Source: an uncultured archaeon (GTDB lineage: Archaea; Aenigmatarchaeota; Aenigmatarchaeia; CG10238-14; SCSR01). From it: 64,000 nucleotides of DNA. The notes below the pieces were generated by a model. It was not told the origin of the DNA. It saw only the letters and a list, made by a program, of their open reading frames with translations, and searched no databases. Of this stretch, positions 1-57,530 are shown piece after piece (the stretch's first letter is position 1; each line of letters begins with the position of its first letter). The DNA lies in the NCBI GenBank assembly GCA_964537835.1, contig CAZICS010000003.1:7163-71162 (forward strand), given 5' to 3'. The position numbers and the translations under genes are program-made.

Positions 1-968
1 GGGAGTTGGGAATAGGAATGGTTTATACTGATCAGCACCCTTCTTTAGTAAGCTATCCAGCCTTAGGAAATACTTCAACGCATGTATACATGAATTTAGG
101 TTTAGATACAAAACATTCTTCGGATATTCAGGATGCAGCTAACATGCTTGGATTGAAAGAAGAAGATTCGGGATATTTAAGAAGATTGCCTGTCGGGCAT
201 GCCTTCATTTTAATCAGAAGGTCCGAATTTCCCAATCCTTTTCTTGTGAAATTCCCTTTGCTAATCAAAGAGAGAGGGAAGATAGATGACGAGATTTTAA
301 GAAAGCTTATGGAAGAAAAAGTTGTGAAAATCGTAAAGTCAAAGAAAGAAAAAATTGCTGAAGTTGAGATTGAAGAAGAATTTAAAAAAGTTTCAGGTAA
401 TGGCTGGAGAATAATAGAGGCTCTTGGAAATTTTAGAGCTTGCACAACTTCTGAAATTTACAAGCTTTTAAGAATTTCTGGAAGAGTTTTCAAGCAAGAA
501 GTTAAAAAACTTGCAGATTTGGGTTTAGTTGCTTGGAAGAGAGCAAAAGTTTACAGACAAAAAGCAATATTTTACTTTTTAACAAGAAAAGGAGAGCTTG
601 CGTTTGTCTTTAAGTTTAAGAAAATACCAGAAGAAGAAGCTAGAATTGATGAAGAAAAAGTTTCTAAAAAATTGGAAGAAATGGGTTGTAAAGTAAAGAA
701 GGTTGATGATGAGAAAATTTACTGCGAAAAAGATGGAAGGGAAATTTTTGTTTTTCTAGAGAGTTCCCTAAATAGAAATAAAATTTCAACCCATGTGAAA
801 GAAGTTTTACCAAGCTTAGAAGGATATTTCGTTTGCTCTTCAGAAAAAATTAAAAACTGTGTTTTACAAGAGTGTGCAAGACAAAGCTTTCAGGCCAGAG
901 CCAATTTTACCTTATTCTATGCAAGCTTAAGCAAAAAAAGTTTTGAGAAAGTTGAATTCTTAGCTTAG
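1..968 (+). CDS. C-terminal part of a HerA/FtsK-superfamily (DUF87-like) NTPase fused to a winged-helix-like segment and an uncharacterised C-terminal domain; 5' end outside window
   Basis: The frame is open to the window edge. TDQHPSLVSYPALGNTSTHVYMNLG and LRRLPVGHAFI resemble the C-terminal region of DUF87/HerA ATPases. wHTH-like segment TTSEIYKLLRISGRVFKQEVKKLADLGLV. Confidence 0.45.
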   Translation, partial: ELGIGMVYTDQHPSLVSYPALGNTSTHVYMNLGLDTKHSSDIQDAANMLGLKEEDSGYLRRLPVGHAFILIRRSEFPNPFLVKFPLLIKERGKIDDEILRKLMEEKVVKIVKSKKEKIAEVEIEEEFKKVSGNGWRIIEALGNFRACTTSEIYKLLRISGRVFKQEVKKLADLGLVAWKRAKVYRQKAIFYFLTRKGELAFVFKFKKIPEEEARIDEEKVSKKLEEMGCKVKKVDDEKIYCEKDGREIFVFLESSLNRNKISTHVKEVLPSLEGYFVCSSEKIKNCVLQECARQSFQARANFTLFYASLSKKSFEKVEFLA

Positions 969-1307
969 GTAAGCTTTAAATATTTTTTCTTTTAATATTT
1001 TGTTACCATTGATAAATGACAAATGTTAGGTTTGAGTAGCTTGCAAGAATTTACAAAAAAACTAAGAGAAAAAGTGAACAGCAAAAAAACTTAAATCATA
1101 GCGTTTAGGATTTAATGAAAAATTGAGGGAAAATGCCTGAAACCTTTTCTTAGCTGGCTTACTTTCTCTTATCCTTTACTTTGTCTTCACTAGTCTTAAG
1201 TTGATTTTTTCTTGTCTTCAGTCATAGTCACTCGATGAAGCTTAGGCTAAGGTGATATTTAATGCAATGAAGGCTCTTAAGGCCTGAGAGAAATCCTAAA
1301 AACCTAG

Positions 1308-2369
1308 GTGATGGAAATGAAAGGGGATTACAAGTTTTTATTAGCACTAGTTGCATCGATTTCAATAGTCTCTCTGTTTTTCGTCGCTCCAACAGAATGC
1401 AAAGAAGTTGAATCAGAAGAAAAACTCTATTTTGAAATAGCCATAGGAGTTGAAAATACTCTTGTCGAGAACATTAGGCTCGATTTCAAGAATTTCAAGA
1501 TAGACTTTCCATTGAATAAAAATATGCCAGCTTTTGGTGAGAATTTCAAAAATCTAAGAATAGAATTAATTCCGGAAGGTCAAAGATTCGTTCTTTTCTT
1601 CGATATTCTCTATGATTCTTCCATCGGATATTCAACAGCAATCTCTTATGCTAATACAATCATTCAACATTTGCTTAACATCTTTGACTATGAGGATATG
1701 CAAGAGCTAGAAAGTCAAGTGAAATTAAAAGAATCAGCGATAGAGATAAAAGCCACTTATGGTTATGGAAAAAACTCGGTTGAAGAAGTTCTAAAGTTCA
1801 TCGAATACAAACCCATGACTGAGCTAGGAAAGTTAGTGAACAAGAATCTGCTAACCAGATATGTTCCAGGAATAAATACAGAGTCGTTCAACTCTGGGAT
1901 CTTCAGAATATTTTATGTTCTTAAAAAGTATGATTCAGACTTTTACTTTGACTTTCAAATTTACTGCGCTAATACCAAAGCTTTGTCAAAAGAAGTCAAC
2001 GACTACAAGGAAGTTATAGATGTTAACGAATTACTCAACAATGAAGGATGGCTAACAAGCCATTCATCGAATCTAAAAATAATCGGGGTAATCCAAAAAA
2101 GCAAGAGTACAACAAGAAGAACTTACATAGTTAACATAGATAAAATTCAGCCTGATATATATAAGCTCGATTCATCCGATCCCTACTACTATGTAATAGA
2201 ATTCGATTCATCGAGCTTTCCTTTGAGAAACATAATAGTAGAATTAACAATCAATCCTAGAAAGCTCTACAATGGAATACCAGTTCCTTATGCCATTCTA
2301 TTGATCATCGTAGTTGGGTTTATCATGTTTTTTTTGTTCTTGAAAAAATTTAGGAGGAAAAAAACATGA
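1308..2369 (+). CDS. Predicted secreted, C-terminally anchored surface protein, no recognisable family
   Basis: N-terminal hydrophobic signal-like segment FLLALVASISIVSLFFVAP. C-terminal TM AILLIIVVGFIMFFLFL followed by a basic tail KKFRRKKT. Confidence 0.5.
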   Translation: MMEMKGDYKFLLALVASISIVSLFFVAPTECKEVESEEKLYFEIAIGVENTLVENIRLDFKNFKIDFPLNKNMPAFGENFKNLRIELIPEGQRFVLFFDILYDSSIGYSTAISYANTIIQHLLNIFDYEDMQELESQVKLKESAIEIKATYGYGKNSVEEVLKFIEYKPMTELGKLVNKNLLTRYVPGINTESFNSGIFRIFYVLKKYDSDFYFDFQIYCANTKALSKEVNDYKEVIDVNELLNNEGWLTSHSSNLKIIGVIQKSKSTTRRTYIVNIDKIQPDIYKLDSSDPYYYVIEFDSSSFPLRNIIVELTINPRKLYNGIPVPYAILLIIVVGFIMFFLFLKKFRRKKT

Positions 2370-3442
2370 AAATTGGGAAGGAATCCAAAAATCAATTACT
2401 GGCAGTGTTCATCGGTACATTGATGCTCTTAACGCCTCACACGACCGCCCAACTCTACGCCACTCTCGTTAACCAGCCAAAAGTTTATACCTTTCAATGC
2501 ACAAAAACGATAAAAGTAGAGGGAAGGGTCCTACAATTCAACGGCCTTTCTGCAATCACAGAATATGCAAATGGGACAAAACAAATTCATCTCTCTGTGG
2601 ACATTTACAATATATCCAGCCAATTCCAGCGGTTAAGAGTGAACTTGACGAGAATAGTTTCGCCTGCTGATACTGAAACAGAGGAACGATATATTCAATC
2701 GTCCTATACCGGACCATTGATAGAGGAGCTATGGGATAATGTCCATTTCGTCTTAGCGCCGGGAAATGCTAGTATCTGGGTGAAATACGACCATCCAAAC
2801 AACTACTGGCGAAATTACTTATATCCTAAGCTGTTCAATCTTCGCTGGATACTTCCACCAGGAGCGCACGGTAATACCAAATTCTTCCTTCACTTGGCAC
2901 AGTCTGACGTGTATGACTGGAAGACTCAAGCTAAAAGCAGGGATGAGATACTTAACCTTTACATACGTGGAACCTCCGTAGGTATTGCGATCATCGGAAA
3001 TGCGTTAGCGGCTTACATCGCCTTTACCATGCAAAATATATGGGGTCTTATCTTAGGAATCATAATTAGTGCTTTGTCTACTCTCATCGGCTGGTTGTTA
3101 GAAGTGCTAGGGTACTCAAGCGAATCACAGTACGTCGAGGAGGAAGTTGAAACAGAAAATGGTGACGGATTCTGTTACATGTGGGGCTTTAGAACTGTGA
3201 GTAGCGATGCTCTCATTGTTCGTCCACCAGTATTGTATATAGCTACTAGAAACGACATCTACCGCATTTTTCAGTACCACCGAGTAGGGGTACTGTTCTA
3301 TGAAAAAAGAGAATTCAAAATCTCATGGGGAGCTGAGAGGGATAATCCATCAACTTGCACTGCCGAGTTCTGGTATTTGCACTGGTTCAATCCAGGAGTT
3401 TTCGGATTTCCCGACGAATACCTAGATTTGATACCGTGGTGA
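2366..3442 (+). CDS. Membrane protein of unknown family (signal peptide plus central TM hairpin)
   Basis: The start overlaps the upstream stop (ATGA at 2366). N-terminal LLAVFIGTLMLLTP. Central hydrophobic stretch VGIAIIGNALAAYIAF...LILGIIISALSTLIGWLL. GC-richer than its surroundings. Confidence 0.5.
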   Translation: MKIGKESKNQLLAVFIGTLMLLTPHTTAQLYATLVNQPKVYTFQCTKTIKVEGRVLQFNGLSAITEYANGTKQIHLSVDIYNISSQFQRLRVNLTRIVSPADTETEERYIQSSYTGPLIEELWDNVHFVLAPGNASIWVKYDHPNNYWRNYLYPKLFNLRWILPPGAHGNTKFFLHLAQSDVYDWKTQAKSRDEILNLYIRGTSVGIAIIGNALAAYIAFTMQNIWGLILGIIISALSTLIGWLLEVLGYSSESQYVEEEVETENGDGFCYMWGFRTVSSDALIVRPPVLYIATRNDIYRIFQYHRVGVLFYEKREFKISWGAERDNPSTCTAEFWYLHWFNPGVFGFPDEYLDLIPW

Positions 3443-3446
3443 AAGA

Positions 3447-3695
3447 ATGACGAGTTGGGGACCTCTTTTAGGAGTGGCAGCACTTCGCGGTGAAGAACGT
3501 CGCTGTCTCAAAGCGCTGAAGGAAATGAATGCCACATCGCCTGAAAACGCAATCGGTGTGAATAAAATCTCTAAAGTGACTAGCCTACCAATTGATAGAG
3601 TTATATCAGCACTTCAAAGATTAAAAAAATGTGGAAAGATTCAAAAGACAGCTGAGGGAAAATACTTTGCAATCTGTAAAGGGAAGTACTGTTAA
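3447..3695 (+). CDS. Small winged-helix-type DNA-binding protein
   Basis: 82 aa. The segment GVNKISKVTSLPIDRVISALQRLKKCGKIQK looks like an HTH plus wing. Lies in the GC-rich island. Confidence 0.4.
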   Translation: MTSWGPLLGVAALRGEERRCLKALKEMNATSPENAIGVNKISKVTSLPIDRVISALQRLKKCGKIQKTAEGKYFAICKGKYC

Positions 3696-3801
3696 GATGA
3701 AGAGCCTTAGGCTCTGACCATCTCCCCATTTTTCTATTTTTTAAGCCTACCCGAGATGATGGGCAGGAGGCTTTGGGCTGCCTGGCTGGAAAGGCGTCTA
3801 A

Positions 3802-5586
3802 ATGCCCATAAATTTGAAAAGAAGAGGTGATGAAAAAAAGATGTTTATAAACTGGTTCCTAACAATACTCTTTTGGCTTTCCATTTTATGGGAAGTAAGG
3901 AAAGTGGTTAAACATTCGGAAATGGAAGAAGGGGAAGAAAAAGCGACCATCTTTATCTGTGGCATACTTTTCTTAATAGCTGGTACAATTCATGGAGCAT
4001 ACACACTTGCAATACCTATCCATCTCTATCTCTTCTGGGCATTCATACTCAGAGGGGCTCTCTTCTGGATAGTTTCTGCACTTACAGCCGAAGAACCATT
4101 CCTAAGAACAAAGAAACTATTAAGCAGAGGAGGAGAAATAAGTCTATCTCGAGTAATAGCTCTTATCATCTTAATCTTTTTGCTACTAGGGTCACTAGCA
4201 TTCTTTGGAGTAAGAAGCATAAGCTACTGGCAAGCAACAACTTTTAAAGGGATGGTCGATGAATTTCAAGAAGGTAGTATTGAGCTCTTTCCTGAAATTG
4301 ACCCCGAAAATGTAAGGGTTACAACTTCTACGATAGCAAGAAGTATTGCAGAAATAAAGCGAACTAGTGCGGAATCGTGGGTAACAAGCGTCCATTTGGG
4401 AATGTATGAGGGTGAATTGTCATGGATATGCACAATATCCGAAAAACCAACCTTTGGAATGTTAATAGGTTCTTCCAACACTATCAGAGAGGTTATAATA
4501 ATACCAGTTATCGATGCAACTGGAGAAAGAGCCAAGGTAATACCGTTTAGAGCTTTTTATGCAGAAGGACTATGGTTCGGAAATGATATAAAAGTTCATG
4601 CCAATGATGTATTTCCTTTAAGAAGCTTTTCAAGAGGTTACATAACTTACCAAAATGAAAAACTTGTGCTAGTCACAACTAGCTATGTGAAAATTCCATT
4701 AGGTCCGCTTATCGATCCTAAGGTTCATGTTTGGGATCCGATTACTGGTGAGCTTATAGGAGAATACACTCCTTACAATGCCCCTGAGTTGATTGTTCAA
4801 AGATGGGATGAAGAAATGTTAGAAATTATGGGAGATGCTTTTGGAGATTTCAGATGGACGGCAGAAAATGAGCTAAACTACTGGAATGGTATACCAAGAT
4901 TCTCTGATAGAAGCGCTGACCCATCTGAGCCAGAAGGACTAAGATACCAAATGTGGAACGGTGAACTAACAGCAGTCTATCTTTTCGATAACAAAAGGAA
5001 TAATCAAGTTTTAGAGCTAGTAATAATAGCTACAAAGGAAGGACTAAAGGTATACTCAGTTGACCATTTAGGTCTTCTTTCACCCGATGATGCGAAAGAA
5101 TTAGCATTGAGTGGCTTACCAGCTTTACCAGAAGGGAAGAACTATTATGCACCAATCGCATTGATCTATAGAATAGGCTTAAGACTCTTCTATCATATAC
5201 CTATCTACATCCAGAGTCAAGAAAGGTATTATCCTGCATACTTTGCATTAGTTGACTGCCAAAGCAGAAGTTACATAAGAGAAAGTGTGGAGAAGTATGG
5301 TGGAATGACCGAAACTATTAAAGCTGTTTATGAAAAGGTAAGGATCCCTTCTGAAGAAAAAATCATTGAAGGTGAAGTAATAGACAAGGATGAATGGGTG
5401 GAGAATGGAAATACAAGGATATGGCTGACCATTAATGTTAACGGAACTGAAGTGGATGTGCTAGTTAAGGCAGAGCTTTTTGAAGAAACTCCAGAAGAAA
5501 TGCACTTGATTCTGGATAAACGAATAGGGGATAAAATAACTGTTAAAATCGATGAAAACAATGTGGTAACAAAAGTTATTTCATGA
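3802..5586 (+). CDS. Large membrane protein: N-terminal TM bundle plus about 430-aa extracytoplasmic domain, unknown family
   Basis: Several hydrophobic helices in the first 150 aa (FINWFLTILFWLSILW, ATIFICGILFLIAGTI, LYLFWAFILRGALFWIV, VIALIILIFLLLGSLAFF). The remainder is soluble-looking. Confidence 0.5.
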   Translation: MPINLKRRGDEKKMFINWFLTILFWLSILWEVRKVVKHSEMEEGEEKATIFICGILFLIAGTIHGAYTLAIPIHLYLFWAFILRGALFWIVSALTAEEPFLRTKKLLSRGGEISLSRVIALIILIFLLLGSLAFFGVRSISYWQATTFKGMVDEFQEGSIELFPEIDPENVRVTTSTIARSIAEIKRTSAESWVTSVHLGMYEGELSWICTISEKPTFGMLIGSSNTIREVIIIPVIDATGERAKVIPFRAFYAEGLWFGNDIKVHANDVFPLRSFSRGYITYQNEKLVLVTTSYVKIPLGPLIDPKVHVWDPITGELIGEYTPYNAPELIVQRWDEEMLEIMGDAFGDFRWTAENELNYWNGIPRFSDRSADPSEPEGLRYQMWNGELTAVYLFDNKRNNQVLELVIIATKEGLKVYSVDHLGLLSPDDAKELALSGLPALPEGKNYYAPIALIYRIGLRLFYHIPIYIQSQERYYPAYFALVDCQSRSYIRESVEKYGGMTETIKAVYEKVRIPSEEKIIEGEVIDKDEWVENGNTRIWLTINVNGTEVDVLVKAELFEETPEEMHLILDKRIGDKITVKIDENNVVTKVIS

Positions 5587-16437: not shown

Positions 16438-16522
16438 TGCGGCCGCCGGGATTCGAACCCGGGTCACCAGCTTGGAAGGCTGGGGTCCATTGGCGAGGTT
16501 AGCCAGACTAGACTACGGCCGC
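16438..16522 (-). tRNA. tRNA-Gly(UCC) with an oversized (21-nt) D loop
   Basis: Acceptor GCGGCCG/CGGCCGC. Anticodon arm CCAGC-CTTCCAA-GCTGG. T arm CCGGG-TTCGAAT-CCCGG. About 10 extra nt (16493-16502) in the D loop. Confidence 0.65.
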
Positions 16523-17239
16523 TTAAAAATGCTTACAAAATTCAATTTTAGTTCTTCTCTTAAATAATTCTTTAGGTCCAGCTTTTAAAATTATTCTTCC
16601 TTTTTCCATTAAATAAACCACATCCGCAAACTTTTTTATAACCTCTATTTCATTCGTCACCAAAAGAATTGTAGTTTGAAGTTCTTTATTCATCTTATTT
16701 AATTTTTTAATAATTACTTCTTTCGACTCAGGGTCTACTTCTGCTAAAGCTTCATCTAAGATAAGCAATTCAGGCTTTGAAACTATTGCTCCAGCTATCG
16801 CAACCTTTTTCTTTTCTCCTCCACTCAAATAAGAAGGAACTTTATTTTTTAACCTTTGAATTCCAAAATCTTTCAAAATCTTATTCACTTCCTTTCTTAT
16901 TCTATCTTCACTCCATCCTAAATTTCTTGGAACGAAAGCTATATCATCGAAGACAGTCGGTCCAAAAAGCTGATAATCAACATCTTGAAAAACAACTCCA
17001 ATTTTCGGAATTAGTTTTTTAAAGTTCTTATAAGGGCTTAATCCAAAAACTTTTATTTCTCCTCTTATTGGCTTTAATAAGCCGATAATATGATGGAGCA
17101 GAGTAGTTTTTCCCGAGCCATTTGGCCCAATTATCGCAACTTTTTCTCCTTTCTCAACTCTAAAAGTTAAACCACAAACTTTAACTTCGGTTTGGTCTTC
17201 ATACCTATGCTTGATGCATTTTACTTTAATTACTTCCAT
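16523..17239 (-). CDS. cbiO: Cobalt/ECF-type transporter ATPase
   Basis: Walker A GPNGSGKTT, LSGGEKKKV signature, Walker B ILDEA. Operon with cbiQ and cbiM. Confidence 0.85.
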   Translation of the reverse strand: MEVIKVKCIKHRYEDQTEVKVCGLTFRVEKGEKVAIIGPNGSGKTTLLHHIIGLLKPIRGEIKVFGLSPYKNFKKLIPKIGVVFQDVDYQLFGPTVFDDIAFVPRNLGWSEDRIRKEVNKILKDFGIQRLKNKVPSYLSGGEKKKVAIAGAIVSKPELLILDEALAEVDPESKEVIIKKLNKMNKELQTTILLVTNEIEVIKKFADVVYLMEKGRIILKAGPKELFKRRTKIEFCKHF

Positions 17240-44629: not shown

Positions 44630-44753
44630 GGGCCTGTAGCTCAGCCTGGTAGAGCAGCGGGCTTTTAGCTTTAAGCTAAAAGCTTTGATTCAAGATGAGA
44701 GAAACCCGTACGTGTAGGGGGAATGGTCGGGGGTTCAAATCCCCCCAGGCCCA
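44630..44753 (+). tRNA. tRNA-Lys(UUU) with about 36-nt intron at 37/38 and a second 14-nt insert after the anticodon stem
   Basis: Acceptor GGGCCTG/CAGGCCC. Anticodon arm GCGGG-CTTTTA[44668-44703]A-CCCGT. Extra acgtgtagggggaa (44710-44723) before TGGTC. T arm GGGGG-TTCAAAT-CCCCC. Confidence 0.7.
44684..44701 (+). other. Conserved intron block TTTGATTCAAGATGAGAG (copy 2 of 3)
   Basis: See 39220-39237. Confidence 0.6.
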
Positions 44754-44820
44754 TTTTTTTGATTATGTATATCTTAAAGTATAGAAATATTTAGGTACAA
44801 TAATAGAGATTATAATTAGT

Positions 44821-45391
44821 ATGAACCATATAAGAAAACCTAAACTTGGCGACCTAGAATTGGCCTATGAAACTGGCTTTCATATAGGAGACTGCACGAT
44901 GACAAGTTGTACAATCTAAATGTAAAGGTTAAAAATTTTGAAAATACTTGCTATATCCGTATATATTCTAAAGAATTAGTAGAATTTAAATCCAAAGTTA
45001 TAGGTTTACCTATCGGACCTAAAACTTCACTCAAAAAACTGCCTACACTAATAATATCCAGAGGTCCTGATTGTGTATCTAGCCTTATAGCAGTATATTT
45101 GATGCAGATGGTAGTGTCAAAATCATCCATAAAAATAAAAGGATATATCCTGCCTTGAACATTACATTAAAAAACAAAGAAATTATTTATCAAATTAAAG
45201 ATATTCTTATGAAACGTGGTATAACCAGTACTTGTTACAAGGAGAGAAAATATGATAAGCGAACAAATAAGTTTACAATTGTATGGAGATTAGATATTAA
45301 TGGAACCCTAAACGTAAAAAAGTTCCTAAAAGAAATACCTATAAGAAATATAAATCATTTGAGAAGACTAAAAAAATTAAGAATCGTTTAA
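44821..45391 (+). pseudogene. Decayed LAGLIDADG homing-endonuclease gene (three frame fragments)
   Basis: Fragment 44821-44919 (LELAYETGFHIGDCTM), fragment 44907-45158 (KVIGLPIGPKT) and fragment 45083-45391 (SSIFDADGSVKI...). Collinear with the intact paralog at 48909-49739. Confidence 0.7.
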
Positions 45392-48841: not shown

Positions 48842-48927
48842 GGGCGGGTAGCTTAGCCTGGTTGGAGCGTCCGGCTGATAACTCATTGGAAACCGGAAGG
48901 TCGCCGGTTCAAATCCGGCCCCGCCCA
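48842..48927 (+). tRNA. tRNA-Ile(GAU) with 11-nt intron
   Basis: Acceptor GGGCGGG/CCCGCCC. Anticodon arm TCCGG-CTGATA[actcattggaa]A-CCGGA. T arm GCCGG-TTCAAAT-CCGGC. Confidence 0.8.
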
Positions 48928-49739
48928 TTCTCTAAACTGAGGGAGTCTATTTCTCCGTTTAGGATGGAAGTCCTTATTTTTAGGTTTGTATTAGGTGGGC
49001 AGAAACCAAATTTCTTCCAAATTTTAAATTTTGTTAAATGTTTTGGATTGTGAGAGCCTATGAGAGAAAACCATCGATTTACCATCTTCTTACCTGAGAT
49101 GTATATTTCATAGACTTTATAAACCTTCCCTGTTCTCCTGTCATGCTCACTAGAAATTCTCCAAGAAAAGTTAAAGTCTAGTTCTTTCAATAATTTGCAA
49201 AGAGAGACTGTTAATCTTTCACTCGAGAATCCGCATTTTATAACAGGATAATAGTGAACATCTTTATACTTTCTCTTAAAGGTTAATGTAAAATCTGCAT
49301 CGAATAACCCTCTTAAAAAGCTTATTTTAAACTTTTTATCAGAATTCTTAATTATTAATGGCATATCTGCTATATTCGTCTTTTTCCCAAGTGGTATTCC
49401 TATTACTTTATTGTAAAAAAGTATTATTCCTTTCGATCTAAACTGAATTCCATAAGTTCCATCAGAAAACTTTTTAGGAATTAATGAAAGTCCAAATAGT
49501 TTAAACTTGAGACCCACTATGAAGTTATCATACCATTCTCTATCGTCAAGTGGATGTCCAGAGCACTTATAAAAGTAGTCATTCCCATGAGGGTTTGGAT
49601 AGATATTCATACAACCATCACCTATATGGATCCCTATATCTTCAGCAAGCTCAGGAGTAAGAAAAGCAGGTAGTTTTATTCCTTTCTTTAAATCCTTCCT
49701 GCTAACTTCGATAGATGAAATATCAAGTTCAATTACCAT
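48909..49739 (-). CDS. Intact double-motif LAGLIDADG homing endonuclease-like protein
   Basis: Motif 1 LAEDIGIHIGDGCM, motif 2 FLRGLFDADFTL. The last 6 codons plus the stop are the complement of the tRNA-Ile 3' end (stop = complement of T-loop TCA, 48909-48911). Confidence 0.75.
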   Translation of the reverse strand: MVIELDISSIEVSRKDLKKGIKLPAFLTPELAEDIGIHIGDGCMNIYPNPHGNDYFYKCSGHPLDDREWYDNFIVGLKFKLFGLSLIPKKFSDGTYGIQFRSKGIILFYNKVIGIPLGKKTNIADMPLIIKNSDKKFKISFLRGLFDADFTLTFKRKYKDVHYYPVIKCGFSSERLTVSLCKLLKELDFNFSWRISSEHDRRTGKVYKVYEIYISGKKMVNRWFSLIGSHNPKHLTKFKIWKKFGFCPPNTNLKIRTSILNGEIDSLSLENGRGRI

Positions 49740-49968
49740 AATTATTACTATAATCTTTAAAGTATTTAAAGCTGACTTTCAAATTATAGTATATGGCACT
49801 AGAAGGATCAACGCAATTATACAAACATAAAAAAGCCAGCACATGTTATATAACCATTCCAGCATCATTAGCAAATGATTCAGCTTTTCCCTTTAGGAGA
49901 GGGGAAAAACTAAAGATAAGAATTAAAAACAATAAGTTAATAATCGAAAAACTCTGAGTTGAAAAATT

Positions 49969-51385: not shown

Positions 51386-51482
51386 ATGCTTAAAATTTTT
51401 ATTTAAGAAGTTAAAAAATATTTGAAGGACTAGGGCCCGTAGCTCAGCCTGGTAGAGCAGCTGGCTCTTAGGGGGCTAGGAG

Positions 51483-51713
51483 ATGAAAAAAATAGACAAA
51501 AGTGTTATTAGCAAAATTCGGGAATACAGGAGACAAGGAAATTCTTTTAAACAAATAGCTCAAACTTTAGATTTAAGTCCAGCAACAGCATACAAGTATA
51601 GCAAAGATATTAAAGTTAGTGTAAGAAGAAAAACAACTCCTAAGAAAAAAGTTAAAATTCCTACTAAGATAACAAGGAATTTAGTAAAGAATAATAGGAC
51701 ATTGTATGTTTGA
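51483..51713 (+). CDS. Intron ORF part 1: HTH DNA-binding N-terminal region of the endonuclease
   Basis: ISKIREYRRQGNSFKQIAQTLDLSPATAYKYSKD (resolvase/transposase-type HTH). KKKVKIPTKITRNLVK aligns with KKGIKLPAFLTPELAE of the 48909-49739 paralog. Confidence 0.6.
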   Translation: MKKIDKSVISKIREYRRQGNSFKQIAQTLDLSPATAYKYSKDIKVSVRRKTTPKKKVKIPTKITRNLVKNNRTLYV

Positions 51714-52299
51714 TGGTAGTGTTTTCGAGTCCAAGAAAGATTACATAATACGTTACACCAACTCATCAAAAGAGGAAGTTAACAAGTTTGTAGAAGACAT
51801 GTGGGAAACATTCAGGTTATTACCAACATCTGTTATAAAAAGAAAAGGGAAATATATAGACTGGTTCGAAACAACATTCTCTTCAAAAAAAGTTTTCGAT
51901 TTTTTACACAATTTTGCTATCTCATTTAGCACTATTAGTGAAACAGGTTTCAGAGAGGAATTTTTATCTCTTCTTTCGAAGAATTTGAAAATAGAACTAT
52001 TAAGAACATTTTGGTGCGATGAAGGTAGCGTAGCAAAGGATGGAAAAATTGTGGGCAAAAGCAAGAGCTTAAGAATTATTCATCAGCTCAAAAATCTACA
52101 TGAATCGTTAGGAATAAAAACATCCATATGGAGAGATAATACCTCAAAAATTTACGGGCTTTACATTAAAAAGAATAAGAGAAATATTAAACTTTTTTCA
52201 AAGATAGGTTTTGGTAATGGTATTGTAACAAGAGGGAAATTTATAGGTCTAAAAAAGAATAAGGTATTAGTAAAATTATATGGGCCCGTCATCTCCTAG
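51706..52299 (+). CDS. Intron ORF part 2: double-motif LAGLIDADG endonuclease core
   Basis: Motif 1 (LY)FDGSVF at the junction, motif 2 LLRTFWCDEGSV. The stop TAG lies in the closing helix. Confidence 0.65.
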   Translation: MFDGSVFESKKDYIIRYTNSSKEEVNKFVEDMWETFRLLPTSVIKRKGKYIDWFETTFSSKKVFDFLHNFAISFSTISETGFREEFLSLLSKNLKIELLRTFWCDEGSVAKDGKIVGKSKSLRIIHQLKNLHESLGIKTSIWRDNTSKIYGLYIKKNKRNIKLFSKIGFGNGIVTRGKFIGLKKNKVLVKLYGPVIS

Positions 52300-52379
52300 C
52301 CCCAGGGAGACCAGTTGGTCGGGGGTTCAAATCCCCTCGGGCCCATTTTAGACAGGAATTATTTTCGATAAAAGTGAAA

Positions 52380-57109: not shown

Positions 57110-57246
57110 GCCCCCGTCGTCTAGTCCGGCCAAGGATGCTGGCCTTTCGATTGAGTTCGAAAGGTTTGATTCCAAGATGAAAGCCAGCGACCCGGGAAAT
57201 ATAGAGTGTAACTCTATATTCGGGGATTCAAATCCCGGCGGGGGCA
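57110..57246 (+). tRNA. tRNA-Glu(UUC) with two introns (37/38 and 53/54)
   Basis: Acceptor GCCCCCG/CGGGGGC. Anticodon arm CTGGC-CTTTCG[57150-57181]A-GCCAG. T arm CCGGG[57197-57226]TTCAAAT-CCCGG. Confidence 0.75.
57165..57183 (+). other. Conserved intron block TTTGATTCCAAGATGAAAG (copy 3 of 3)
   Basis: See 39220-39237. One extra C. Confidence 0.6.
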
Positions 57247-57530
57247 TATTTCTTTAGAAAATTGGAGATTTTTTCTTTTTTATGAGAAAGGACCATAAAA
57301 GGTAAGACATGGTTTTTGATGAATTCAAAATTTTTCCTTGAAACTAAGAATTCTAGTGCAAACCATCTTCCTTTAATAACTCTATTTTCTTTTCTAAAAT
57401 AACTCTCTCCTTCTCTTTCAGTTATACTTACTGAACAGTTTAAAAGCCTTCTTATCCCTCTTGCTAGTTCCGTTTGATCTTTCTCGAAGTTTATCTCGAT
57501 GTTTATATTTATACCTCTTAAGACTATATT
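57228..57530 (-). pseudogene. Start-less remnant resembling the C-terminal half of a LAGLIDADG endonuclease
   Basis: 100-codon open frame ...ELARGIRRLLNCSVSITEREGESYFRKENRVIKGRWFALEFLVSRKNFEFIKNHVLPF...KYAPAGI*. It ends on the complement of the tRNA-Glu T-loop TCA (57228-30). Not in the ORF track. Confidence 0.4.

Follow-up and report, generated by a model that had tools for sequence, protein, structure and literature searches.

Archaeal LAGLIDADG endonucleases are textbook residents of ribosomal RNA (rRNA) introns and inteins. The LAGLIDADG gene described here lies outside and antisense to a transfer RNA gene, tRNA-Ile(GAU), whose 3′ end it overlaps, in a stretch of 64,000 nucleotides (nt) from an Aenigmatarchaeota archaeon (contig CAZICS010000003.1 of GCA_964537835.1, positions 7,163–71,162, forward; hereafter the window). 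The closest relatives of the window are Aenigmatarchaeota (DPANN), and its GC content is ~34%. Relatives of the gene were collected in a scan with one genome per species, which gave 246 relatives, and 80 loci were retained (L-numbers). The comparison suggests, with a probability of about 0.72, that the gene is one of a set of free-standing homing endonuclease genes specific for tRNA genes, each lineage being tied to one tRNA gene.

The archaeal rRNA-intron enzymes of the I-DmoI, I-Tsp061I and I-PorI class share with this family (family A) a monomeric double-motif fold, archaeal hosts and a stable-RNA gene as partner, and one family-A member, at locus L072 (open reading frame [ORF] 3001–3783), itself sits inside a 23S rRNA gene (Rfam LSU match, 496–5171), the classical rRNA-intron niche. 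In contrast to that class, the partner of the window gene is a tRNA rather than an rRNA, the gene is free-standing, outside and antisense to the RNA gene, with a predicted TATA-like promoter of its own, and the protein is longer at both ends, with an N-terminal extension and ~45 additional conserved residues at the C-terminus. The closest precedent in function is SegB of phage T4, a free-standing GIY-YIG homing endonuclease encoded in a tRNA gene cluster. SegB cuts the tRNA region of a rival genome and so favours the inheritance of its own gene together with the tRNAs around it, with no intron involved (PMC2330249). The window family differs in being LAGLIDADG and residing in cellular archaea rather than a phage, and SegB shows neither lineage-per-tRNA specificity nor systematic end-on tRNA overlap, nor have pseudo-tRNA duplicates been reported for it. 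Endonuclease-bearing group I introns occur in bacterial and organellar tRNA genes (PMC3984707), and a survey placed 39 of 39 archaeal group I introns in rRNA genes, 21 of them with LAGLIDADG proteins (PMC6125680). A further copy in the window, in tRNA-Lys(CUU), resembles the tRNA group I case in that an endonuclease gene occupies an intron of the anticodon loop; the intron there, however, is a protein-spliced bulge-helix-bulge (BHB) intron, not a ribozyme, and Rfam gave no group I intron match in the window.

Two other kinds of mobile DNA bear comparison. Viruses, plasmids and islands with tyrosine integrases use a tRNA gene as landing site, leaving the tRNA functional and a partial copy of it at the far boundary. 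The window family differs from these in its size (~1 kb, without an integrase), in docking at both 5′ and 3′ tRNA ends, and in near-whole tRNA repeats (L081, L043). Free-standing endonuclease ORFs of fungal mitochondria, such as that at Allomyces atp6, insert at a gene's 3′ end, for which they supply a new terminus, while the displaced end decays downstream. The likeness is that an endonuclease gene abuts or overlaps the end of an essential gene whose displaced end decays; the fungal system, however, is organellar and consists of in-frame fusions to a protein-coding host, whereas the archaeal ORFs adjoin a tRNA, often in antisense orientation. Searches of the open-access literature brought up no description of archaeal LAGLIDADG genes that flank tRNAs, nor of archaeal tRNA BHB introns with an endonuclease gene.

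A double-motif LAGLIDADG gene at the end of tRNA-Ile

The features at the core of the locus are the following.

48909–49739, − strand: family-A LAGLIDADG endonuclease gene, intact, free-standing, double-motif (276 amino acids [aa], ATG start)
48842–48927, + strand: tRNA-Ile(GAU) with an 11-nt intron (~48882–48892) next to the anticodon loop and an intact T-arm (Rfam, 59 bits)
48909–48927: antisense overlap of 19 nt between the 3′ end of the ORF (GRGRI plus stop) and the T-loop, T-stem and acceptor 3′ strand of tRNA-Ile

The initial annotation described a 276-aa ORF with both LAGLIDADG motifs and their acidic residues in place, and this holds: IHIGDGCM occupies residues 36–43 and LFDADFTL residues 144–151. 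The conserved acidic residues are D41 of GIHIGDG and D147 and D149 of LFDADF. All three fall in nearly invariant columns of a 37-sequence family alignment, in which conservation is at least 90% at G40, D41, G42, D147 and D149. The AlphaFold2 model made from these 37 homologs was of high confidence (predicted local distance difference test [pLDDT] 95.8, predicted template modelling score 0.92) and displays the expected tandem alpha-beta-beta-alpha-beta-beta-alpha order of elements. The conserved fold ends near residue 270; residues 273–276, encoded by the tRNA overlap, have pLDDT values below 50 and are disordered. Foldseek comparison with the PDB returned LAGLIDADG enzymes throughout, with a probability of 1.00 to TliVMA, PI-PfuI, I-Tsp061I, I-DmoI and I-OnuI (E = 1.3e-10 for 7qsu, an archaeal intein endonuclease, 2e-8 for 2dch, I-Tsp061I, and 1e-7 for 2vs7, I-DmoI); ranks 7–11 include bI3 maturase and WhiA. 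A sequence search of the PDB with the endonuclease protein gave nothing useful. A conserved C-terminal tail, NPKHLTKYxIWKKFGFCPPNTTL..R..IL, extends beyond the core fold. Almost all of the 116 homologs come from DPANN archaea, and most are annotated as PF14528; together with the Foldseek matches, they bear out the assignment to the LAGLIDADG family, although Pfam applied to the window protein alone stays below threshold. The ORF is best read as the gene of a monomeric, double-motif LAGLIDADG homing endonuclease from a DPANN family, free-standing and probably active.

The identity of the tRNA was established by sequence inspection, in which the anticodon loop reads CTGATAA and is followed by the 11-nt intron. 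ARAGORN with the -i option miscalls this gene as Ser(GGA), and it calls Ile(GAT) for the orthologous tRNAs of a 95%-identical strain (L083) and of the intron-free L002 and L008. Anticodon calls by ARAGORN for intron-bearing tRNAs were accepted only after inspection, and tRNA typing of multi-intron genes was partly by eye. Because the tRNA is complete, with the ORF outside it on the opposite strand and a conserved AT-rich divergent promoter region upstream, the gene is free-standing, and 48909–49739 is not encoded in a BHB intron.

The coordinates agree with the described antisense run of the ORF into tRNA-Ile(GAU), its stop codon being the complement of TCA at 48909–48911, within the T-loop TTCAAAT (48908–48914). 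Of the last codons, described as six (ENGRGRI) complementary to the tRNA, the five that encode GRGRI lie fully inside it; the N codon overlaps by one base and the E codon lies outside. The same stop-in-T-loop geometry recurs at L001, L002, L008, L011, L014, L041 and L081. A shared stop register had also been claimed for a remnant at tRNA-Glu, the frame of which does end on the T-loop TCA at 57228–57230; the sharing itself is incidental. The idea of a special register was rejected, since antisense TTCAAAT has TGA in one of its three frames; with genes as tightly packed as these, a stop in the T-loop is an incidental by-product. In other clades the stop lies at −16, −1, 0, +1 or +6, or further into the tRNA. 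Zero-spacer packing of genes and tRNAs is normal in this genome, and overlap alone is therefore weak evidence. One further case of such packing is an ABC-transporter ATPase ORF (16523–17239, −) that abuts a tRNA (16438–16522, −).

tRNA neighbours and tRNA relics across DPANN archaea

Adjacency to tRNA genes was assessed over the 80 loci, nearly all of them from DPANN archaea. With ARAGORN -i, a tRNA edge falls at the stop codon of the ORF in 40 of them, compared with 2.1% of flank positions (binomial p = 2.3e-45), and the ORF usually overlaps the adjacent tRNA by 10–60 nt. At least 10 more loci, with multi-intron tRNAs, emerged from Rfam, a scan for T-arms and a home-made detector, bringing the count to at least 50 of 80; the Rfam and T-arm scans contributed L055, L064, L066, L001, L011, L033, L052 and L063. 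In L001, the closest genome relative (59% identity), the stop codon of the ORF likewise falls in the tRNA-Ile(GAU) T-loop. Two orientations occur: convergent, with the tRNA 3′ end overlapped, in at least 15 loci, and co-directional, with the tRNA 5′ end overlapped, in at least 25. About a dozen tRNA types are partnered. The enrichment beside tRNA genes that the initial annotation had anticipated is thus found, and the association with tRNAs characterizes the family as a whole and is no accident of this one locus.

In a neighbour-joining tree of 82 proteins, a simple distance tree without support values, members group by tRNA identity and orientation. The co-directional clades are linked to His(GUG) (n = 10 called, plus one untyped tRNA), Arg(GCG) (n = 3), Leu(CAA) (n = 3) and Arg(UCG), and the convergent ones to Thr(UGU) (n = 4), Cys (n = 2) and Ile(GAU); Asn and Met partners are also convergent. 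Many of the relatives' genome bins are metagenome-assembled genomes, and one locus of the His clade carries a bacterial bin label, probably through a binning error. The Ile(GAU) clade comprises the window, L081, L001, L002 and L008, from bins of Aenigmatarchaeota, Iainarchaeum and Nanoarchaeota. The flanks differ among the window, L001 and L081, and the endonuclease–tRNA-Ile pair is retained. Such grouping of clades by tRNA is the pattern expected from site-specific homing lineages, and the adjacency statistics across relatives support the suggestion that the family homes next to or into tRNA genes, free-standing or intron-borne. The C-termini of proteins in family A, and in a further family (family C, below), spell antisense-tRNA peptides such as GRGRI, PGRDLNS, WARGDLNS and WAGFEP.

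No spacer separates endonuclease gene and tRNA in the co-directional clades, so that transcription of the tRNA would have to pass through the endonuclease gene or start inside it. In the His clade (L018, L019, L022, L031–L037, L053 and L057), the conserved C-terminal NPKNLNK codons AATCCAAAAAATTTAAATAAA double as a TTTAAATA box ~45–60 nt upstream of the tRNA. The TTTAAATA box within co-directional ORFs might be a tRNA promoter.

In eight loci (L039, L081, L043, L013, L015, L051, L049 and L090), decayed remains of a second copy of the linked tRNA, or of one end of it, lie beyond the endonuclease gene. When the endonuclease-proximal 28 nt of the linked tRNA were aligned to the 400 nt beyond the gene start, L039, L081, L013, L043, L051 and L015 gave scores that ≤0.5% of non-cognate pairs attain (expected, 0.2 loci), and L049 was marginal. 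The most complete relic, in L081, is a decayed and nearly whole second tRNA-Ile that spans positions 20–117 with its intron segments; L043 has a pseudo-tRNA-Thr with an internal deletion and both ends retained. In L039, the gene stands between a complete tRNA-Met and an orphan fragment consisting of T-arm and acceptor, and the T-stems of the linked and orphan copies differ by compensatory changes (GGTGG/CCACC versus GCTGG/CCAGC). The two copies in L051 differ at four positions. In L090, which is related to the intron-borne type, tRNA-Val is followed by the endonuclease gene and by 19 nt that repeat the 3′ end of the tRNA. Distal direct repeats of the tRNA 3′ end are thus present in L039, L090, L013, L015, L043 and L081, those of L039, L013 and L015 starting at positions 49–56 of the tRNA, whereas the co-directional loci L051 and L049 repeat a fragment of the 5′ end instead. 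The bracketed segments of L090 (~950 nt, endonuclease only) and L081 (~1.2 kb, with an additional 55-aa AbrB-like gene) contain no integrase. Within the window, a TTCAAAT heptamer at 49780 was considered as a tRNA relic and ruled out, as it is not conserved in L001 or L081.

The family is patchily distributed and frequently decayed. In L083, which is 95% identical in DNA, positions 1049–1878 correspond to window 48909–49739, and the endonuclease gene is frameshifted into ORFs of 73 and 202 aa; the gene thus appears to be decaying within the population. Several related loci have internal stops in the endonuclease ORF. A scan of viral contigs returned only distant partial relatives (≤33% identity), with no sign of a viral vector. 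Patchy distribution, differing flanks, pseudogenes and pseudo-tRNA duplicates lend indirect support to mobility, and nothing in the differing flanks, the decay or the duplicate tRNA copies suggests that the ORF is an ancestral neighbour unrelated to the tRNA.

Further LAGLIDADG copies and the divergent neighbour

Seven tRNA genes were recognized in the window: five at or above the Rfam threshold, a tRNA-Glu at 26.2 bits and a tRNA-Lys(CUU) with an 839-nt intron. Introns interrupt six of the seven, in several cases at non-canonical positions or more than once, and ARAGORN at default settings detected one and missed six. Besides tRNA-Ile, three of them are associated with LAGLIDADG sequence.

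44630–44753, + strand: tRNA-Lys(UUU), intron-containing (Rfam, 54.8 bits)
44785–45388, + strand: family-A LAGLIDADG pseudogene with at least two frameshifts (family profile in three frames, E = 7e-18, 6e-14 and 1e-3)
51434–52346, + strand: tRNA-Lys(CUU) with an intron of ~839 nt (~51471–52309) at position 37/38 (ARAGORN -i; canonical helix-bulge-helix-bulge-helix junction)
51483–52299, + strand: intron-borne gene with helix-turn-helix (HTH) and double LAGLIDADG (family B), frameshifted (Pfam LAGLIDADG_3, E = 3.9e-10; weak HTH match)
57110–57246, + strand: tRNA-Glu with two inserts, the second of 30 nt (~57193–57222) between the T-stem 5′ strand and the T-loop (53/54) (Rfam, 26.2 bits, sub-threshold)
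57231–57530, − strand: C-terminal remnant of a family-C LAGLIDADG gene, ~100 codons without a start codon (exhaustive phmmer)

Profile and phmmer matches at four loci confirm that four of the seven tRNA genes are coupled to LAGLIDADG sequence; the remaining three have ordinary neighbours. The initial annotation had assigned the four copies to one endonuclease family. All four are LAGLIDADG, but they fall into three subfamilies, and the two family-A copies belong to distant lineages. On sequence comparison, four apparently independent LAGLIDADG lineages touch four of the seven tRNA genes, and three of these copies are decayed.

The pseudogene at tRNA-Lys(UUU) begins 31 nt beyond the tRNA by its first detectable homology and 77 nt beyond it by its first ATG (44831). 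Its nearest relatives are in the Arg(GCG) clade (31–32% identity), and it is therefore not a duplicate of the Ile-linked copy. The family-B gene is split by its frameshift into 51483–51713 and 51688/51706–52299 and matches the family-A profile with an E-value of only 1.4e-4. Its placement in a BHB intron is evident from an hBHBh′ junction with a 14-bp outer helix and from compensatory changes in L088 and L089. Intact homologs of 286 aa (P0119) and 258 aa occupy the same tRNA-Lys(CUU) site in L088 (53–994) and L089. An ORF-bearing BHB intron of ~840–870 nt is thus seen at tRNA-Lys(CUU) in three independent sequences, with ends that form a GC-rich helix of 7–14 bp showing compensatory changes. 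The 14-bp terminal helices resemble the complementary leaders of split tRNAs.

The family-C remnant converges on tRNA-Glu, its frame ending in ...KKYAPAGI and the stop. It escaped detection by tblastn, the family-A profile and Pfam; exhaustive phmmer gave 64 hits, the best being P0123 (57% identity, E = 3.9e-19, residues 141–222 of 232 aa). Homologs are intact at ~225 aa and match Pfam LAGLIDADG_3/_1, so that the window piece represents the C-terminal third, and many end in antisense-tRNA peptides. Inserts of 28–32 nt at 53/54 like that of tRNA-Glu are also present in the linked tRNAs of L039 (868–972), L043 (3765–3911) and L055 (797–903), and those of L039 and L055 share end sequences. The 53/54 insert may serve to interrupt a target site in the DNA, or its occurrence may be coincidental.

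On its other side, the endonuclease gene of the window faces a small gene across a shared intergenic region.

49740–49792: divergent promoter region with TTTAAA-type TATA-like boxes ~25–30 nt from both ATGs, conserved with L001, L081 and L083 (alignment)
49793–49957, + strand: AbrB/MazE-like gene, 54 aa, divergent from the endonuclease gene (weak Pfam MazE_antitoxin match, E = 0.023)

The boxes were assigned by eye and are presumed to be TATA boxes of the archaeal type; the intergenic region also carries repeated TTACTGTCA-like motifs. The AbrB-like gene is divergently paired with the endonuclease gene in the window, L001 (2753–2911), L083 and L081 (4901–5068), where it lies inside the tRNA/pseudo-tRNA bracket. 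The protein (58–94% identity, 31 invariant columns) is co-inherited with the endonuclease gene in an Aenigmatarchaeota subclade. A further AbrB-like homolog, in L084 (3001–3156), stands beside a different ORF of 292 aa that has LAGLIDADG-like motifs, abuts a tRNA-like 3′ end and matches family A weakly in hhalign (probability 18%, E = 0.0013). The other flanks of the window locus are housekeeping genes (DUF763, DUF5654 and a HAD hydrolase).

Proposed homing beside tRNA genes and its alternatives

The fold, the motifs, the adjacency statistics, the match of clade to tRNA, the pseudo-tRNA remnants and the pseudogenisation are observations on which a model of tRNA-specific homing can be built. 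The docking seen across the family is end-on: the endonuclease gene meets a complete tRNA gene with its own 3′ end and as a rule runs into it, from the tRNA 3′ side in the convergent clades (Ile, Thr, Asn, Cys and Met) and from the 5′ side in the co-directional ones (His, Arg and Leu). In the model, the enzyme would recognize and cut a site in the cognate tRNA gene, or straddling its end, in genomes free of the element. The break would be repaired against the element-bearing copy, with the tRNA gene itself as portable homology, and the endonuclease gene would thereby come to lie next to a working tRNA. A single crossover or one-ended repair in a new host would leave a redundant tRNA copy or fragment on the far side, which would then decay. 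Conserved and essential, tRNA genes would offer a landing site portable across phyla, and docking beside rather than inside them would remove the need for an intron. The Ile-linked copy of the window would be an intact element, and the Lys(UUU), Glu and Lys(CUU) copies would represent later stages of invasion and decay. Cleavage activity, target position, mode of integration and the escape of the linked tRNA from cutting are the parts of the model that we infer.

Several results weigh against this model. An adjacent tRNA was not found in 25–30 of the 80 loci with the detectors used. The breakpoints of the pseudo-tRNAs are heterogeneous (~20 in L081, both ends in L043, 49–56 in four loci) and define no single cleavage position, and a search of the window's own flanks for Ile, Lys(UUU) and Glu relics detected no pseudo-tRNA. 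Exact-protein look-ups of the flanking DUF763 and DUF5654 genes found only the same strain, with the site occupied; the same-strain contigs recovered (L083, L086 and L087) are all occupied, and no empty allele was found. A metagenome scan with the AbrB-like protein gave one new locus, L084, and no empty allele. The identities within the Ile clade across phyla, 41–64%, could also fit old vertical inheritance. At the protein level, the Pfam LAGLIDADG_3 match of the window protein reaches 16.4 bits against a cut-off of 22.5 (E = 0.011), and motif 2 reads DADF where D-G is canonical, with Phe for Gly after the catalytic Asp (residues 144–151, ~49287–49310). The same G-to-F change (DTDF/DADF) is common to roughly the closest third of homologs, however, which indicates that it is selected and not a lesion. 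Finally, the model leaves unexplained how the intact adjacent tRNA escapes cleavage; possible hints are the variant stems that distinguish linked from orphan copies and the 53/54 insert.

A tentative variant, of low probability, would refine tRNA-specific homing rather than exclude it. In a cleave-and-rescue-like module, the endonuclease would destroy a sensitive resident tRNA allele, and the linked tRNA would be a rescue copy that resists cutting thanks to variant stems or to an intron splitting the DNA site. Spread would occur by addiction as well as homing. The overlap of ORF and tRNA, which amounts to zero recombination distance, would suit such a module, as would the finding that the decaying copy is the far-side one and that linked and orphan copies differ in L039 (the compensatory T-stem changes) and in L051 (the four positions). 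Of 21 convergent-linked tRNAs, 4 have the 53/54 insert, against 0 of 34 other tRNAs (29 co-directional plus 5 other window tRNAs; Fisher p ~0.018). On the other hand, 53/54 is a known non-canonical intron position in archaeal tRNAs generally, most linked tRNAs have ordinary intact T-arms and no intron near the junction (all of the His clade, L002 and L008), and the L081 orphan shares the odd intron segments of the linked copy and is not obviously a different allele. Should the module exist, DPANN archaea may, speculatively, host a natural drive of the cleave-and-rescue type, in which a cut in the conserved T-arm or D-arm is survived by a linked, cleavage-proof tRNA copy while the resident copy decays. 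Introns of the 53/54 type, as immunity, and ORF-bearing anticodon-loop introns, driving intron gain and tRNA splitting in Nanoarchaeota and relatives, would be its by-products.

It is rather unlikely that the free-standing genes are relics of intron-borne ones, the family having once resided in tRNA BHB introns until exon duplication or repair restored an uninterrupted tRNA beside the former intron. Endonuclease-bearing BHB introns do exist in the window, L088 and L089, a family-A member lies in a 23S rRNA intron (L072), and the orphans have the shape expected from such events, that of L081 beginning after the 5′ part of the tRNA and those of L090 and L039 being 3′ pieces. The intron-borne copy nevertheless belongs to a different subfamily, as its weak match to the family-A profile (E = 1.4e-4) attests. 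Moreover, convergent ORFs are antisense to the tRNA, which is unexpected for a co-transcribed intron passenger, and co-directional genes stand upstream of the tRNA 5′ end rather than between exons.

It is improbable that the LAGLIDADG protein has been domesticated and is inherited vertically, serving its host in a role connected with the adjacent tRNA, such as that of a WhiA-like DNA-binding regulator or an RNA maturase. The structural matches to bI3 maturase and WhiA, the conserved C-terminal tail (NPKHLTKYxIWKKFGFCPP) outside the core fold, the G-to-F change in motif 2 and the persistence of the Ile linkage at 41–64% identity could all be accommodated by domestication. The catalytic acidic residues of both motifs are conserved, however, the distribution is patchy and pseudogenes are frequent, even in a 95%-identical strain, and the same window holds three other, decayed LAGLIDADG copies. 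About a dozen tRNA partners in two orientations are also hard to fit to one host function.

Direct repeats of tRNA 3′ ends are the classic signature of tRNA-targeted integration. That the repeats bracketing the gene in L039, L090, L013 and L015 are att sites, with the endonuclease gene as a passenger of an integrase element, is nonetheless very improbable, given that the bracketed segments measure ~0.95–1.2 kb without an integrase, that in co-directional L051 and L049 it is the tRNA 5′ end that is repeated, unlike the products of integrases, and that the window flanks are housekeeping genes.

A large LAGLIDADG family and at least one further subfamily dock, free-standing, at specific tRNA gene ends, with one lineage per tRNA, across DPANN phyla. 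For annotation, the consequence is that default tRNA finders miss such tRNAs and gene callers extend endonuclease ORFs into them. A rearrangement inside the ORF-bearing tRNA-Lys(CUU) intron would yield the architecture of a split tRNA gene with complementary leaders. If the enzymes cut tRNA genes, these would constitute a new natural target class for meganucleases, and mobile DNA would have a route to tRNA landing sites that does not depend on an integrase. There would then also be a testable link between selfish endonucleases and the tRNA introns, non-canonical intron positions and split tRNA genes of DPANN archaea, the origin of which has long been debated.

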